Of a DNA stretch of 64,000 nt, positions 6,795 to 53,930 are shown one piece after another. How positions within the stretch are numbered: position 1 is the stretch's first letter; each line of letters starts with the position of its first letter. The notes under the pieces were generated by a model. It ran no database searches. It had not been told where the DNA came from and worked only from the letters and a program-made list of their open reading frames with translations. The DNA comes from Alphaproteobacteria bacterium (lineage in GTDB: Bacteria; Pseudomonadota; Alphaproteobacteria; MPNO01), in NCBI GenBank assembly GCA_965231875.1, contig CBDDOM010000002.1, positions 2,627,942 through 2,691,941 on the forward strand. The letters are read 5' to 3'. The position numbers were made by a program, and so were the translations under genes.

Positions 6795-7769
6795 TCAACC
6801 GCGGCTGCAGGCACCTCCGCCAAGAACGCAGAACCGGGCGCAGTGAGGATGGTTGAGCTTCACCTCGCCGGACGCCTCGGCAAGGCTGTGGCCCAGATCG
6901 AACTGCGTCTCGTAAGGCAGTAGCGTGCAGGCGACCACGCTCGCCGGCTCTCCCTTGCGCTTGACCACCATGCGTTGGGTCGCGCACATCATCGCGGCCG
7001 GCGAAACGCCGAGAATGCCCCAGCAGGCCTCGGTTATTTCGGGAACATCGGCGGTCTCGTCCATCTCCGGCAGCAATGTCAGCTTGACCGGATCCCCGAC
7101 GTCGAAGTCGATACGGTGCTCCGCGAACAGACGGGCGTAGCCGGCCCTCAGCGACTCTTCGCTCTCGCTCCAGCAAGTGCGGCCGCAGATGTGGACGTTG
7201 AAGCCGTTCTCCACCAGCCAGCCCAAGCCGGCGACGGCGGGCTTCCAGGACCGCTCGCCCCGCTCCATTTCATGCAGCGCCTGCCCGTAATGGTCGAGCG
7301 AGACGCGGATGGCGAGCCGGTCCCCATGGGCTTCTTTGAGCCGGAGAAGCTCCCTGGCACGCGTCATCATCGGGCGCATCGCGTTGGTCAGCACCAGGAC
7401 ACGAAATCCGCGGTCGAGGCAGGTCTCGACGATCGGCGCGATTTCGGGGTTCATGAAGGGTTCGCCGCCGGTCAGCCCGATCTCCCGCGTCGGCAGGCCG
7501 GTTTCGGCAATCTCGTCGAGGAAGCGCACCACGTCGGCGAGCGGCAGGTATGCGAGGCGGTCGTTGGTCGGGCTCGACTCGATATAGCAGTTGCGACACG
7601 TGATGTTGCACAGCGTGCCGGTGTTGAACCACAGGGTCCGGAGCGCGTCGAGCGCGACCGAGGCACGCCGGGCGCCGTCCGCCGTGACATCCGGGTCGCG
7701 AAACTTGGCGCCGTCGAGCGCGGGGGCCTCGATCGAGGCAGGGTCTACCCTCATCTTGCCTGGGCTCAT
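6795..7769 (-). CDS. Radical SAM protein with Cys-rich C-terminus (ArsS/TIGR04167-like?)
   Basis: CNITCRNC is a CxxxCxxC radical SAM cluster motif, followed by GLTGGEPF. The C-terminus ends HCARFCVLGGGAC. The ORF-track start at 7892 is a TTG; the first ATG is at about 7769 or 7754, so the start is uncertain. Confidence 0.6.
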   Translation of the reverse strand: MSPGKMRVDPASIEAPALDGAKFRDPDVTADGARRASVALDALRTLWFNTGTLCNITCRNCYIESSPTNDRLAYLPLADVVRFLDEIAETGLPTREIGLTGGEPFMNPEIAPIVETCLDRGFRVLVLTNAMRPMMTRARELLRLKEAHGDRLAIRVSLDHYGQALHEMERGERSWKPAVAGLGWLVENGFNVHICGRTCWSESEESLRAGYARLFAEHRIDFDVGDPVKLTLLPEMDETADVPEITEACWGILGVSPAAMMCATQRMVVKRKGEPASVVACTLLPYETQFDLGHSLAEASGEVKLNHPHCARFCVLGGGACSRG

Positions 7770-7948
7770 CCTGGAAGGAACGGGATCGTATAGCGAACGC
7801 TTCCCGGCGGCGATAGCCAATATTTCGTGATCGTGCGCGGGGATATGGCCCCGGGCGTCCCCGCGTACTAAGTAGAGCACGAGCGTTTGCAATGCGGGAC
7901 GGGTGGCACGGGTGCCGCGCCACCCCGACTGGATCGAAGGAGGAATTC

Positions 7949-14486: not shown

Positions 14487-14589
14487 CCCGTCATGGTCGG
14501 CGCAGGCCGACCATCCAAGAGTTTTTTTCTGTATCAACGGGAACACAAAAAAGCAAAACGTGGATGGTCGGCCTGCGCCGACCGTGACG
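14487..14589. repeat. Family-A REP/BIME-like palindromic element, copy 1
   Basis: Left arm cccgtcATGGTCGGCgcagGCCGACCATccaag and right arm cgtggATGGTCGGCctgcGCCGACCgtgacg are inverted. Each arm is itself a 9-bp-stem hairpin. They flank a conserved spacer with A/T runs. It lies in the ptrB-ispG divergent intergenic region. Confidence 0.8.
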
Positions 14590-49401: not shown

Positions 49402-49488
49402 GGGGGCGCTCGCGGTGGGTGGGGCTCTCAGAGACTGAATTTAGGGCGGACGGGGCGGATTGGCCACCAGAGGTAGCGCCGGTTCCTT

Positions 49489-49586
49489 CCCGTCATGGTG
49501 GGCGGAGGCCCACCATCCACGAGTTTTTCTGTGCGGACGGCACAACAAAATAAGACGTGGATGGTCCGCCTGCGCCGACCATGACG
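49489..49586. repeat. Family-A REP/BIME-like palindromic element, copy 2
   Basis: Same architecture and spacer as copy 1. The left hairpin reads ATGGTGGGCggagGCCCACCAT. That is a compensatory double change (C->G in one stem strand, G->C in the other) relative to ATGGTCGGC...GCCGACCAT. Confidence 0.8.
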
Positions 49587-49606
49587 TTTCGTGAGTCCGG
49601 CCCCGA

Positions 49607-50545
49607 TCAAAACGCCCGGTGGATCAGCTCCTCCCCGGCGAGGAAGCGTTTCAGGTTTTCCAGCCAGATCTCGCCCACGCGCACGGTGTAGAGCGGCGTC
49701 ATGCAGGCGGCGTGGGGGGAAATGAACAGGTTGGGGATGTCCCAGAGGTCGCTGTCGGCGGGCAGGGGCTCGGTGGGCAGCACGTCGACGAAGGCCTGGG
49801 CGATGCCGCCGGTGGCGAGCGCGCCCTGGAGCGCCTCGATATCGACCAGCGCGCCGCGCCCGACATTGACCAGCGTCGCGGTGGGCTTCATCCGGGCGAG
49901 CGCCTCGGCCCCGATCATGCCGGCGGTCTCGCCGGTGTTGGGGACGGCGAGGACCACGAAATCCGCCTCCGGCAGGAACGCGGCAAGGTCGTCGAGCGTC
50001 CCCTGCCGGTCGAGCCCGGGCACCGGATCGGGCGACCGGCGGATGCCGTGCACCGTCATCCCGAACGCGCCCGCATAGGCCGCGACGCGGCTGCCGATGG
50101 CGCCGAGCCCGACGACGAGGACGGTGGACGCGCTCAGCCCGGCCTGCTTGAGCTGGTGCCACTCATGCGCGCGTTGCAGGTCGCGGAACTCAGCCAGCCG
50201 CTTCGCCCCCCACATCACGCCGGCGAAGGCGAACTCCGCGACCTCGGGCGCGTTGGCGCCGGGGCTGTGGGTGACCGCCACCCCCTTGGCCCGCATGTCG
50301 TCATAGAACCGCCCGTCGATCCCCGCATCCTCGGTATGCGCCCATCTGGGCGGGGAGATGGAGATCGCGGTGTCGACGAAGGCGTCGGTGTAGGCGTCGC
50401 CGGCGTAGATCACGACATCGGAGCCCTCGGGCGAGACGGTCCAGTTGCTCCCGCGGTCTGTCAATGCCCATTCGATGCCGGGGCAGAACGCCTCGGCTTG
50501 CGCCGCCACCTCGTCGTGGAAATCGTGCGCCGCCGCGATTTTCAT
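49607..50545 (-). CDS. D-isomer-specific 2-hydroxyacid dehydrogenase family protein
   Basis: NAD-binding VGLGAIGSRVA motif. Catalytic-domain layout. Start at MKIAAAHDF. Confidence 0.75.
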   Translation of the reverse strand: MKIAAAHDFHDEVAAQAEAFCPGIEWALTDRGSNWTVSPEGSDVVIYAGDAYTDAFVDTAISISPPRWAHTEDAGIDGRFYDDMRAKGVAVTHSPGANAPEVAEFAFAGVMWGAKRLAEFRDLQRAHEWHQLKQAGLSASTVLVVGLGAIGSRVAAYAGAFGMTVHGIRRSPDPVPGLDRQGTLDDLAAFLPEADFVVLAVPNTGETAGMIGAEALARMKPTATLVNVGRGALVDIEALQGALATGGIAQAFVDVLPTEPLPADSDLWDIPNLFISPHAACMTPLYTVRVGEIWLENLKRFLAGEELIHRAF

Positions 50546-50684
50546 GGTGATGACTCCGTCTTCCCCGACCGCAAACCGCGCGGACCGTTTGTTGGGCCCG
50601 TATTGTACCGACGACGGACGCCGGTTGCGCGGCCGGGGCACGGCCCTATACTGTGACTACATTGGTTACAAACGGGGATCGCCG

Positions 50685-50927
50685 ATGCGACAGGTCCAGC
50701 TGCGCGAGGCCAAGGCGAGGCTGTCCGCCCTGGTCGACGGGGCGGCGGAGGGGGAGGCGACGATCGTCACGCGCCACGGCAAGCCGCGGGCCGTGATCGT
50801 CGGGATCGACGAATGGAACCGCCTCAGCAACGTCCCGTCCTTCGGCCGCCTGCTGCTCGCTTCGGAACTGGAGGACGGGGACCTGCCCCCGCGCGACACC
50901 GCCCCGCCGCGCGAGGCCGGGCTATAG
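50685..50927 (+). CDS. Type II antitoxin, Phd/YefM family
   Basis: 80 aa. MRQVQLREAKARLSALVDGAAEGEATIVTRHGKPRAVIVGIDEW is the canonical Phd/YefM N-domain. Confidence 0.7.
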   Translation: MRQVQLREAKARLSALVDGAAEGEATIVTRHGKPRAVIVGIDEWNRLSNVPSFGRLLLASELEDGDLPPRDTAPPREAGL

Positions 50928-50967
50928 AACGCATCCGTTTCAGGCGGAACCGCGTCCGCTGTTTCTG

Positions 50968-51079
50968 CCCGTCATGGTCGGCGTAGGCCGACCATCCACG
51001 TTTTCTCTTTTGTTGTTCTCCATCTGCATACCGGGCGAGAAAAAAACTCGTGGATGGTCGGCCTACGCCGACCATGACG
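50968..51079. repeat. Family-A REP/BIME-like palindromic element, copy 3 (inverted orientation, longer spacer)
   Basis: Hairpins read ATGGTCGGCgtagGCCGACCAT. The spacer is the reverse complement of the copy-1/2 spacer, with an 18-bp insertion. It sits between the Phd antitoxin gene and the VapC toxin gene. Confidence 0.8.
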
Positions 51080-51138
51080 GTGGGGGTGCGCCAGCCCGAC
51101 CGGTTCCGACCGAACCGGACACGCTCTAGGACCGCGTC

Positions 51139-51576
51139 GTGTACCTGGCCGACACCGATGTTCTGTCGACCGATGCGCCCGGCCGGCGGGAACGCTCCGC
51201 GGCCCTGGTCGACTGGATGGACGCGCGGTCGGACGCCTTGTTCCTGTCCACGATCACCGTCGCCGAAATCCGGCACGGCATCGCCAAGCTGGAACGGACC
51301 GGCGCCGCAGACAGGGCGGCGCGCCTCGGCGACTGGCTCGAACTCGTGCTCCATCTCTATGGCGACCGGGTAATCCCGTTCGACATAGAAGCCGCCAACG
51401 CCGCGGGGCCGCTGATGGACAAGGCGCGCGCGACGGGCCAGTCGCCCGGCTTCGCCGACCTCGCCATCGCCGCGACGGCAGACAGCCGGAACCTGACGGT
51501 GCTAACGCGCAACCTGCGTCACTTTGAGCCGCTGGATATCCAAGCGGTAAATCCGTTCGAAGCGTCGCCGGACTAA
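51139..51576 (+). CDS. Type II toxin, VapC (PIN-domain ribonuclease)
   Basis: YLADTDVLS...STITVAEIRHGIA...DLAIAATADSRNLTVLTRNLRHF is a PIN/VapC signature with intact acidic residues. Apparent GTG start with no obvious RBS. A stop codon lies 3 codons upstream in frame. Confidence 0.7.
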   Translation: MYLADTDVLSTDAPGRRERSAALVDWMDARSDALFLSTITVAEIRHGIAKLERTGAADRAARLGDWLELVLHLYGDRVIPFDIEAANAAGPLMDKARATGQSPGFADLAIAATADSRNLTVLTRNLRHFEPLDIQAVNPFEASPD

Positions 51577-51686
51577 GCGTGGTCCCGAGAAAGGGCCTCC
51601 TCCTCACATCCTCTCCGCGTTTAATGACCCCGTTGCTGAACCAAGGCCGCCAAAGCCGTATCTGGGCATTACATTCCACTTTATCC

Positions 51687-51716
51687 TTGACATTAGTCGT
51701 TCTCTGCAGCATAAGT
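51687..51716 (+). promoter_or_regulatory. Putative sigma70-like promoter of the AT-rich island gene
   Basis: TTGACA, 18 bp, ATAAGT, about 78 nt upstream of the ATG. A strong AAAGGAGAG RBS sits before the start. Confidence 0.4.
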
Positions 51717-51793
51717 TGTCGTCTGCCTCGTGGATTCGAGGACAGATGGTCGGCAATCAAGCTGCTGGATGGCGGCATTGAAAGGAGAGATAG

Positions 51794-52990
51794 ATGCTTC
51801 GTAAGTTCAGTTTCGCGCCGGAATTTGCTCGGCGCATACCCGATCCCAACTTCAAGTCCCAGTCTAACGCCGAACGACACCTATTTGTGATGGGTGTCAA
51901 ATCGATTCCTGCTGGCATCGGCCTAGATCCGAACGCGCGTCGGCCCAACATCTCGAAGCGCGTTTATCGAAAAGTTGAGGCCAGTTTGCTACAGCAGGAC
52001 GAGAGTCCCAGAGGGACTTTTCATCTGAAGAACAAAGGCATCACGATAATCGCTTCGTCGGTCAAGCAGTCGGGAGACCGAAAATACGAAATTGCTTTGG
52101 AGTCTGGTGTCCATGGTATCGTTGACGGTGGACACACTTATGAACTCATCATAAACAATCAAGAAAATCCAGAGCTGGCGGACGACCAATATGTGAACGT
52201 TGAAGTCCGCGTTGGAATTCCAGATCAGTGGATTCCTGAAATTGCGGGCGGCCTCAATACTTCAGTGCAGGTTCACGACATGAGTTTGGACCATCTCGCT
52301 GGACGCTTTGAGTGGCTGAAGGATTTGCTCAAGAAAGAAGAGTATTACGACACGATCGCTTGGTCGGAGAACGACAAAGGTGAATATGACGCCCGCGATA
52401 TCATAAGCATGATGCTGTGTTTCAACGTTGCTCTTTTCCCCAATGTTAAAGAGGATCACCCGATCGCCGCCTACGAAAAGAAGTCGACAGCCTTGAAGTT
52501 GTTTGAAGATAACGATGGTAGCTTCAAGCGCATGAGGCCGATACTCAAGGACATTTTGCGTTTCCATGATATCGTCGGAAAACAGGGCCGTGAGCTGTAT
52601 AATAAGTTGCCGAATACAAAAGGTGGAACTCTGGCGTTTGTCGATCAGCGCAAGCGGGGAAAGTATCGATTTCAATTCATCGGTGACGAAGACGATTATC
52701 GCCTTGCTCCCGGTGCGCTGTACCCGATGATGGCTGCATTCCGCTGGTACATTGAAGAAGACCCAATGTCGGGAAACATGAAATGGCGTGGCGGGTTCGC
52801 GAGCGTGCTAACGGCTTGGAATGAACTCGGAGGCGAACTAATGCGCGCCACGATGCAAACCAGTAACGAGTTGGGCCGAAATCCTCAATCTATCGGTAAG
52901 AGCCGCAATCACTGGTCGAACCTGCATTCTCGAGTCATTAAACATGACCTGATGAGCCAGAAGCGCCCAAACGCCGGCGCTGCTGAGTAA
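51794..52990 (+). CDS. Hypothetical protein in low-GC island; AIPR-like (abortive-infection phage-resistance) candidate
   Basis: 398-aa ORF in a segment with clearly lower GC and different codon usage than its surroundings. It has its own promoter and strong RBS. N-terminal KNKGITIIA and HGIVDGGHTYELII resemble the 'NNGITI ... IVNGxQT' core I associate with the AIPR family. That is an unverified recollection. Confidence 0.45.
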   Translation: MLRKFSFAPEFARRIPDPNFKSQSNAERHLFVMGVKSIPAGIGLDPNARRPNISKRVYRKVEASLLQQDESPRGTFHLKNKGITIIASSVKQSGDRKYEIALESGVHGIVDGGHTYELIINNQENPELADDQYVNVEVRVGIPDQWIPEIAGGLNTSVQVHDMSLDHLAGRFEWLKDLLKKEEYYDTIAWSENDKGEYDARDIISMMLCFNVALFPNVKEDHPIAAYEKKSTALKLFEDNDGSFKRMRPILKDILRFHDIVGKQGRELYNKLPNTKGGTLAFVDQRKRGKYRFQFIGDEDDYRLAPGALYPMMAAFRWYIEEDPMSGNMKWRGGFASVLTAWNELGGELMRATMQTSNELGRNPQSIGKSRNHWSNLHSRVIKHDLMSQKRPNAGAAE

Positions 52991-53042
52991 GAGGAAACCA
53001 CCGACTCGGGGGGCGACCGCCGACAAAGCGCGCTCCCGCCCC

Positions 53043-53930
53043 CTACCTCTGCACCCCCGCCAGCCCTTCCAGCACCGCACACACACTCGCCGTGTCCTCC
53101 GCCACTCGCCCCTGCGCCAGGGCGGCGTTGTAGATCTGTCCCGAGGCCGCGAAGCAGGGGGCGGCGCAGCCGACCTCCGCGAGGAAGTCGCCGATGACCT
53201 TCATGTCCTTGAGCTGCATGTCGATCGACGCCGAGGCGTTGGAATAATCCCCCGCGACCATCTGCGGGCCGCGCACCTCGAAGATGCGGGAGGTGGCGGC
53301 GCTGTTGGAGATCACCTCGTAAATCGTCTCCGGGTCGAGCCCCGCCTTGATGCCGAGCGCGAAGGCCTCGCCGGTGGCGACGTTGTGGATCGCGACCAGG
53401 AGATTGGCGACGAACTTCATCCGGCTGCCGTTGCCGAATTCGCCGAGGTCGTAATGGGCGCGGGAGAACCCCTCGAACACCTCGGTCAGGGACGCGATGG
53501 CCTGGCTGTCGCCGCTCGCATAGACCACGAGATCGCCGGCCGCGGCCTGGGTGCTGGTGCCGCTGAGCGGCACGTCGAGCAGGATCTTGCCGGTCTCGGC
53601 CAGCGTCGCGCGGCCGGCTTCCTTGATCGCGATGGGGAGCGTCGAGGTGTCGAAGGCGACGAGGCCGGGCTTTTCGGCGGCGCCGATCCCGTCCGCGCCC
53701 CCGATCACGTCCTCGAACGCCGCGATGGTGGGGAGCGAGGTCATCACGCAATCCGCGGCTTCCGCCACCGCGCGCGGGCTGTCGGCCACGCTGCCGCCCA
53801 TTGCCGCAAGGGCCTCGGCGCGCGCCGGGTCGGGATCCCGCCCCACCACCTGGAATCCGGCGGCGATCAGGTTCTTCGCCATCGCCCCGCCCATCCGGCC
53901 CAGCCCCACGATTCCGACCGTCTTCGCCAT
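53043..53930 (-). CDS. NAD(P)-dependent oxidoreductase, 3-hydroxyisobutyrate/6-phosphogluconate dehydrogenase-like
   Basis: N-terminal GIVGLGRMGGAMAKNL Rossmann motif and a C-terminal 6PGDH-like helical domain. GGGAGAGGGA RBS. Confidence 0.75.
   Translation of the reverse strand: MAKTVGIVGLGRMGGAMAKNLIAAGFQVVGRDPDPARAEALAAMGGSVADSPRAVAEAADCVMTSLPTIAAFEDVIGGADGIGAAEKPGLVAFDTSTLPIAIKEAGRATLAETGKILLDVPLSGTSTQAAAGDLVVYASGDSQAIASLTEVFEGFSRAHYDLGEFGNGSRMKFVANLLVAIHNVATGEAFALGIKAGLDPETIYEVISNSAATSRIFEVRGPQMVAGDYSNASASIDMQLKDMKVIGDFLAEVGCAAPCFAASGQIYNAALAQGRVAEDTASVCAVLEGLAGVQR

Follow-up and report, generated by a model that had tools for sequence, protein, structure and literature searches.

The window examined here is a 64-kb stretch of alphaproteobacterial DNA (contig CBDDOM010000002.1), and the subject of this report is a low-GC segment within it, together with the single gene it carries, which encodes a 398-amino-acid (398-aa) protein of the AIPR family. 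The comparisons below show the segment to be a horizontally acquired single-gene cassette, made up of a promoter, a structured leader, and the open reading frame (ORF). The gene is a HEPN-less, DndB-like AIPR gene with a structured RNA, and it is by that RNA, a conserved and covarying leader of two hairpins, that the locus is most clearly distinguished. The leader was missed by the initial annotation of the window, which saw here a small island encoding an abortive-infection protein beside a toxin-antitoxin (TA) module. The observation behind that annotation is confirmed. Its interpretation is supported in part: AIPR, the island, and the hotspot hold, and abortive infection does not.

I propose that the product is most likely a tightly regulated, mobile, DndB-like nucleic-acid-binding protein. 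More precisely, with a probability that I put at about 0.45, it would be a binder of the ParB/DGQHR type and not a HEPN toxin, one that fills the place of DndB, a regulator, in relatives linked to phosphorothioation (dnd) genes and that, alone in the window, serves as a sensor or regulator. The question reaches beyond one locus. AIPR is widely taken as a marker of "known defence", to my knowledge no mechanism is known for it, and here is a subfamily of more than 1,300 clusters without the presumed toxin domain: a single mobile gene with its own promoter and leader, sometimes found at the DndB position in phosphorothioation clusters. Its leader is a candidate for a new class of cis-regulatory RNA with unusually clean covariation, and the two hairpins offer an experimental handle on AIPR control and recognition.

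A twin-hairpin RNA conserved across the family

When the upstream regions of family members are aligned, nearly all of them have two hairpins between the promoter and the Shine-Dalgarno (SD) sequence. Those of the window read GUCUG-CCUCG-(UGGAUU)-CGAGG-A-CAGAU (P1) and CAA-GCUGCU-(GGAU)-GGCGGC-A-UUG (P2), where parentheses enclose the loops and the lone A is a bulge; the SD sequence AAAGGAG follows P2 at once. The hairpins repeat with a period of about 35 nt, and their stems are two-tiered, bulged, and 9-10 bp long. Both loops have an invariant GGA followed by U or C as the fourth base (hence GGAY), with the bulge on the 3' side an A in 46 of 51 instances of P2 and 32 of 51 of P1. P1 is also present in the minimum-free-energy (MFE) fold of the window's leader. 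The SD sequence, strong and separated from the ATG by 6 nt, is not sequestered in the predicted fold.

The case for the structure lies in the pattern of substitution among 51 leaders, aligned by MAFFT blind to structure and then given to RNAalifold. Both hairpins were found, and all 13 predicted pairs show compensatory changes. P2 taken alone is paired in 95% of its cells over the same leaders, with compensatory changes in 9 of 9 pairs. Considering the full two-tier structure, 88.3% of cells are paired, as against 60.3% after shuffling (none of 500 shuffles came as high) and 32-42% when the partners are slid out of register; double-sided changes occur in 19 of 19 pairs, and the covariation score is 0.743 against 0.246. 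Then there is the matter of strand. G.U pairs outnumber A.C, their antisense equivalent, by 77 to 18, a 4.3-fold excess, and the structure therefore belongs to the sense strand, as expected of RNA rather than of a duplex operator.

A covariance model built from 32 of the leaders finds the motif nowhere but where it is expected. Counting matches with E<=1, there were 67 in 1.05 Mb and four more in a further 0.16 Mb, all 71 of them directly upstream of family genes and on the same strand; about 25 of the loci come from outside the seed. The leader of the window matches at 51721-51782 with 60.9 bits (E 1.7e-12). The model found nothing elsewhere in the window, in the relatives whose corresponding site is empty, on Firmicute plasmids carrying distant relatives of the gene, or at a canonical dndB locus. 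Rfam 15 had no match at E<=1 in 50900-53100 and, in 20 other loci, only tRNAs and two chance matches elsewhere. The leader thus matches no Rfam family, and no literature on it was found.

Where does the RNA begin? A consensus scan of 50400-53400 reported no promoter and no terminator, so the promoter was re-evaluated by comparison. A near-consensus promoter had been claimed at first, TTGACA followed after 18 nt by ATAAGT. The -35 box stands: the hexamer is perfect, and TTGACA with an AT-rich -10 lies at the same place in two relatives, L001 and L002, the former with unrelated flanks. The -10 box does not, since ATAAGT agrees with TATAAT at just 2 of 6 positions. CATAAG after a 17-nt spacer is the better reading (4 of 6, the final T missing), and its counterparts in the alignment are TATAAA in L002 and TAGTAT in L001. 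Across the family, a -35/-10 pair with at most 3 mismatches abuts the RNA motif in 16 of 56 leaders, compared with 0.4% of control positions, and a -35 with at most 1 mismatch is found at the equivalent position in 22 of the 56. These comparative data support a real, sigma70-like promoter. Its -10 box ends 5 nt upstream of the RNA motif in the window, and the gap to P1 is 5-7 nt in most leaders with a good promoter match, which puts the motif at about the 5' terminus of the mRNA. The alignments thus show a leader that begins at about the 5' end of the transcript and a twin-hairpin RNA conserved by covariation across the family.

Two observations may be set beside these. The clade of L035, L044/L045, and L106 has identical inner arms and loops in P1 and P2 (gcugcAGGAUgcagc twice), which suggests that there the hairpins were duplicated or homogenised. 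And at 51842-51846 the invariant codons for Asp17-Pro18 give GAUCC at position +49 of the coding sequence, a sequence that complements the GGAU(C) loops, perhaps by coincidence, perhaps for a long-range contact.

An AIPR protein without HEPN, in the company of dnd genes

The initial annotation was right about AIPR. Pfam places residues 44-330 of the protein in PF10592 with 80.5 bits (cutoff 25; E 2.4e-22), covering profile positions 1-274 of 308, and all 56 aligned homologues match the same family. In the canonical architecture of AbiU1/AIPR proteins, an N-terminal HEPN domain, a predicted RNase toxin, is joined to AIPR in one chain (PMC3506569). From the 398-aa protein this toxin domain is absent: AIPR begins at residue 44, and the PADLOC model for AbiU (537 positions) is matched only at its positions 257-426 (E 8e-4). 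What precedes the AIPR match, residues 1-43, consists of confidently predicted beta strands of the N-terminal domain, according to AlphaFold2 (AF2). At E<=10, Pfam finds AIPR alone in the 56 members: no HEPN, no DndB (PF14072), no ParBc, and no DUF262. Nor did scans with Pfam, PADLOC, NCBIfam, and PHROGs turn up a nuclease, TIR, SIR2, transmembrane, or other effector domain; NCBIfam and PHROGs gave nothing useful for the window protein.

Structure was little more helpful. AF2 models of the full protein and of the N-terminal domain both have a pLDDT of 90, and Foldseek matched neither to anything in PDB with E<0.1, a nuclease included. A search of PDB by sequence gave a chance match to an ETS protein when the single protein was used and nothing when a profile was used, and a look-up of the exact 398-aa protein found no record. 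I considered and rejected a PD-(D/E)xK reading of D199/D202...E228-K230, as these residues sit in predicted helices.

The family itself is coherent. There are 1377 clusters of homologues, and the best 120 are all about 390-410 aa long with AIPR as their sole Pfam domain. Motifs invariant in the 56 sequences include DPNAR, FHLKxxG, DGGHT, and GLNTxxQ. The gene lies more than 3 points of GC below its flanks in 38 of 45 loci and more than 3 points above them in none of the 45. Most members, that of the window included, are solo genes amid housekeeping genes, some beside insertion sequence (IS) elements. Searches of phages gave just three weak matches, with six relatives in IMG/VR; the family is thus rare on phages, and an origin from a phage or prophage is unlikely. 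Relatives at about 30% identity are found on small Firmicute plasmids, paired not with the RNA but with a divergent helix-turn-helix (HTH) regulator. A regulator in place of the RNA suggests that expression of AIPR must be controlled. The tRNA genes at 2846-2916 in L029 and at 2123-2208 in L044, each about 1.2 kb or less from the short AIPR gene, may mark integration hotspots.

All neighbouring ORFs were clustered over 80 loci, and the sole recurrent neighbourhood to emerge is one of phosphorothioation genes, present at 14 loci, the AIPR gene usually convergent with dndC-dndD-dndE-dndA. No canonical dndB was found in the fetched flanks of these 14. At L102, for example, NCBIfam identifies DndC (E 4e-170), DndD (8e-151), DndE (4e-19), and DndA (3e-119) and no canonical dndB. 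Two of the 14, L102 (8964-9851) and L095 (8994-9866), also have directly upstream of AIPR a gene for a phosphorothioate-DNA restriction endonuclease (NF045808, above cutoff), so that the layout runs from endonuclease to AIPR to the convergent dndA-E-D-C block. In a canonical cluster, carried by a Rhizobium plasmid, dndB precedes the same order of dndC-D-E-desulfurase. At least two clades contain dnd-linked members; the clade of the window is wholly solo.

The resemblance to DndB extends to the proteins. DndB's N-terminal domain has been assigned to the AbiU1/AIPR family (PMC3506569), and DndB, DUF262, and SspE to a ParB-like superfamily (PMC11662687, PMC4619093). DndB is 370 aa long, close to the 398 aa here. 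Its invariant pentapeptide DGQHR (DGQHR/DGQQR in DndB and DUF262) has as its counterpart in the AIPR family DGGHT, invariant in 56 sequences, and the two are aligned by hhalign, in a comparison that is only marginal, within 123 colinear columns over the N-terminal 140 residues, an upstream A-R pair falling on the Q-R pair of DndB. The 14 loci that adjoin dndCDE(A) without a nearby dndB, and the two inverted repeats upstream of the gene, reminiscent of the two palindromic operators of DndB, complete the likeness. The differences are these: the hidden Markov models of DndB (PF14072/TIGR03233) are unmatched by the protein; in dnd-linked loci its gene is convergent with dndCDEA and not the first of the operon; most family members have no dnd neighbours; and the inverted repeats behave as RNA hairpins. 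I take the role of the protein, and probably its fold, to be like those of DndB; it lies outside the DndB family proper.

What the protein and its leader may do

The absence of HEPN, taken with the dnd partners, leaves the abortive-infection reading of the initial annotation unsupported; the dnd partnership points instead to a role like that of DndB. By analogy, the DGGHT domain of the protein would probably bind or sense nucleic acids in an NTP-dependent manner. A solo member, such as that of the window, might then be a stand-alone sensor or regulator of the state of DNA, or of foreign DNA, with a role associated with defence.

Much weighs against this. NCBIfam gives no match for the window protein (no family at E<=1) and none at E<=0.001 for the dnd-linked member at L102. 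The comparison by hhalign with a profile of 36 DndB sequences is marginal (E 0.035, probability 1.5%), and those with individual sequences, one of DndB and one of a DGQHR protein, are not significant. The best structural match found by Foldseek, to the ParB-like PadC, is weak (TM 0.34-0.40, probability 0.30), and so is the match to SspE, a DUF262 protein. No dnd genes lie within the 64-kb window, and most members of the family are likewise solo. The known operators of DndB are palindromes of double-stranded DNA (dsDNA) with conserved arms; here it is the arms that vary and the loops that are conserved. Hairpins with GGA loops followed by an SD sequence containing GGA would suit control by CsrA/Rsm as well. 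That the AIPR protein binds RNA at all is my proposal, and I know of no biochemical function for any HEPN-less AIPR protein.

The obvious competitor is what was first suggested, a single-protein abortive-infection toxin like AbiU that senses phage and kills or arrests the cell. It would account for the AIPR domain itself, defence-associated and mobile, for the weak match to the AbiU model, for the low GC and mobility of the gene, and for its presence in a hotspot that elsewhere houses DarTG and TA modules; tight control by a leader would befit a toxic product. But the protein is about 140-250 aa shorter than AbiU1/AIPR proteins, and what it lacks is HEPN, the very part considered to be their toxin (PMC3506569). 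No effector domain or structural likeness to a nuclease takes its place, and the rarity of the family on phages also tells against this reading. AbiU1/AIPR genes are moreover found within restriction-modification operons (PMC2292703, PMC3506569). The gene here lies outside any such operon, between Phd/VapC and a dehydrogenase, with a structured RNA leader of its own; its solo relatives sit among housekeeping genes, and a modification system is a neighbour only in the dnd-linked subset. I consider a toxin of this kind unlikely. One might suppose instead that the protein is an orphan regulator of the DndB type (PMC4507180), serving dnd/ssp phosphorothioation, or restriction dependent on it, encoded elsewhere in the genome. 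The 14 loci without dndB argue for this, as do the two with the endonuclease and the spread of dnd linkage over more than one clade. However, neither the window nor any solo locus with its 8-10 kb of flank contains dnd genes, the gene moves alone, independently of dnd, and the window belongs to a clade that is entirely solo, all of which makes the idea quite improbable.

The leader poses a separate question. A pair of similar hairpins at a distance of about 35 nt, of which the second touches the SD sequence, could be an operator for a dimeric binder, and I would tentatively take them as a translational operator; the most probable candidate for the dimeric factor is the AIPR protein itself. Once bound at P2, the factor would occlude the SD sequence, and expression would stay low as long as the protein was not titrated off. 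The AIPR protein is preferred as the binder because Salmonella DndB, a regulator, acts as a repressor of its own gene by way of two palindromes that lie in the gene's promoter (PMC4507180), and similar autoregulation would make the circuit self-contained, which is how I would explain that the RNA travels with the gene across hosts.

The main rival as binder of the leader is a host regulator of the CsrA/Rsm type, a dimer of which would bridge the GGA of a hairpin and that of the SD sequence and so repress translation. The loops, (Y)GGAU(G/U), come close both to CAGGA(U/A/C)G, which is the CsrB repeat, and to RUACARGGAUGU, the SELEX consensus (PMC7652899). As in CsrB/RsmZ-type RNAs there are several sites with GGA(U) in loops and one GGA in the SD sequence, here about 15 nt downstream. 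Moreover, a csrA-like ORF (73% identity over 26 aa with E. coli CsrA) lies 7-8 kb from AIPR at L047 (16729-16803) and L048 (10829-10903). On the other side, the ACA invariant in SELEX ligands is not conserved in the leaders, their stems of 9-10 bp compare with mostly 4 bp or less in CsrA ligands (PMC7652899), and a conserved bulge within fixed two-tier stems is not a feature of CsrA targets. No csrA was found in the window or at any locus other than those two. The gene is present in about 30% of genomes and in few Pseudomonadota outside the gamma group (PMC13443453), yet the motif, bound to one mobile gene family, accompanies it across diverse hosts, many of them probably without csrA. CsrA as the binder is therefore doubtful. 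It is very unlikely that the hairpins are a protein-independent stabiliser of the 5' end or, as DNA, an operator for a transcription factor. Stem-loops at the 5' terminus shield mRNAs from 5'-end-dependent decay, and P1 does start 5-7 nt past the -10, about where the mRNA begins; but stabilisation does not account for the invariant GGA in two loops or the A bulge of P2. An operator of two palindromes has its precedent in DndB (PMC4507180); it would be expected to conserve its arms and not its centre, whereas the arms here are not the same in P1 as in P2, nor from one homologue to the next. I rejected it as the main explanation on these variable arms together with the asymmetry of G.U and A.C.

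A further possibility, to which I give little credence, departs from that of the translational operator in making the twin GGAY hairpins an RNA partner of the AIPR-only protein, the two forming a self-contained RNA-protein module. The two repeats of about 35 nt on its own mRNA would restrain the protein, with its ParB/DGQHR fold, or be the means by which it senses; release of the module would follow once infection, or a shift in the modification state of DNA, altered the RNA or titrated the protein. Type III TA and Abi systems (ToxIN, AbiQ-antiQ) come to mind, which likewise have tandem structured RNA units, repeating every 35 nt or so, directly upstream of a gene of an Abi family and sharing its promoter. 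The differences are that there are only two units here, that no terminator separates RNA from ORF, and that the AIPR protein is unrelated to the endoribonucleases ToxN and AbiQ. If it were true, this would be a new RNA-regulated single-gene cassette, for defence or for regulation of phosphorothioation, spread over several bacterial phyla.

The insertion site and its neighbours

The composition of the segment stands out as described in the initial annotation, which also had its two boundaries, the end of vapC at 51576 and the dehydrogenase stop codon at 53043, correct. It is 50% GC in a Defluviicoccus-like genome of 68-70%, and a GC profile runs at 0.47-0.53 inside and 0.68-0.74 in the flanks. 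The AIPR gene has a GC of 0.503 and a GC at third codon positions (GC3) of 0.571, while vapC reaches a GC3 of 0.84 and the dehydrogenase one of 0.91. It is the only ORF of the island, begins with ATG, and includes the peptides HLKNKGITIIA and HGIVDGGHTYELII that had been quoted from it.

Table 1. Positions of the cassette, its parts, and adjacent features in the window
Feature	Position	Strand	Basis
Low-GC inserted island	51577-53042		GC drop; only 33-48 bp here in empty-site relatives L007, L010, L011
-35 box TTGACA	51687-51692	+	perfect hexamer; also in L001 and L002
-10 box CATAAG, weak	51710-51715	+	4/6 match to TATAAT; 17-nt spacer; alignment of relatives
Leader hairpin P1	51721-51747	+	covariation counts; covariance-model match; MFE fold
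Leader hairpin P2	51758-51780	+	covariation counts, 51 leaders
Shine-Dalgarno AAAGGAG	51781-51787	+	sequence inspection; unpaired in centroid fold
CDS, 398-aa HEPN-less short AIPR (DndB-like) protein	51794-52990	+	PF10592; homologues; dN/dS; AF2
Invariant DGGHT motif, residues 111-115	52124-52138	+	56 aligned sequences; hhalign against DGQHR
phd/yefM antitoxin, neighbour outside cassette	50682-50927	+	PF02604, E 4.6e-16, 58.8 bits
REP/MITE-like palindromic element between phd and vapC	50969-51080		41-nt inverted arms, 90% complementary
vapC PIN toxin, neighbour	51139-51576	+	PF01850, E 2.6e-12, 47.8 bits
3-hydroxyisobutyrate-type dehydrogenase, core genome	53043-53930	-	PF03446 and PF14833; syntenic in 12 relatives

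Horizontal acquisition and variable presence, as the initial annotation surmised, are borne out by the 12 relatives that share the flanking genes. Three of them have an empty site, with the dehydrogenase followed directly by vapC. L002 and L005 have at the same site an AIPR gene whose product is 82% identical to that of the window. Other relatives carry there alternative cargo of 46-47% GC: DarG and DarT, macro-domain gene first, in L009 (11214-13131); a GNAT-PIN fusion with PDC-M11A/B-like (ASCH) genes in L006 (11172-13752); and in L013 (10985-12256) an unannotatable low-GC gene of 423 aa. The site is shown by this to be a hotspot for defence and TA genes, with variable cargo or none. Like the hotspots of P2 and P4 (PMC9122126), it is a fixed site with conserved flanks and exchangeable low-GC defence/TA cargo, or empty; it differs in being chromosomal, in Defluviicoccus-like Alphaproteobacteria, with no integrase and no phage or satellite backbone. 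The locus documents a defence hotspot flanked by core genes in these wastewater bacteria.

The gene has its own history. A copy with 86% aa identity lies in L001 at a non-syntenic position, between a hydantoinase gene and a rhomboid gene, and DNA homology with the window is confined to the stretch between promoter region and stop codon. The window protein is thus nearer to this copy than to that of syntenic L002 (82%). Between the window and L002, dS is saturated for the AIPR gene and 0.35-0.45 for the flanks, and dN/dS of the AIPR gene is 0.06. By these substitution rates the gene is functional and was not inherited with its flanks, having been acquired or replaced independently in the two lineages; the low dN/dS ratio shows its protein to be under strong purifying selection.

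Phd and VapC are indeed adjacent to the cassette, as first noted, and had been taken together with AIPR as one set. I rejected such a functional unit, since relatives have Phd/VapC without AIPR and AIPR is found elsewhere without Phd/VapC; their adjacency is an effect of the hotspot. The repeat remarked on near the island, said to be in its third copy, is a REP/MITE-like element of about 112 bp with two 41-nt inverted arms, each containing the palindrome ATGGTCGGCSTASGCCGACCAT. The window does have three copies, at 14493-14585, 49495-49582, and 50974-51075, with 6 half-sites found against 0.01 expected. The third splits the phd-vapC pair and is missing from syntenic L002. At the second copy, the interval between SCO1 and a 2-hydroxyacid dehydrogenase (49467-49597), L002 has instead (7145-7943) an extra Phd-antitoxin gene and a gene of 144 aa, so that this interval is a further variable slot, at a distance of 2 kb from that of AIPR.

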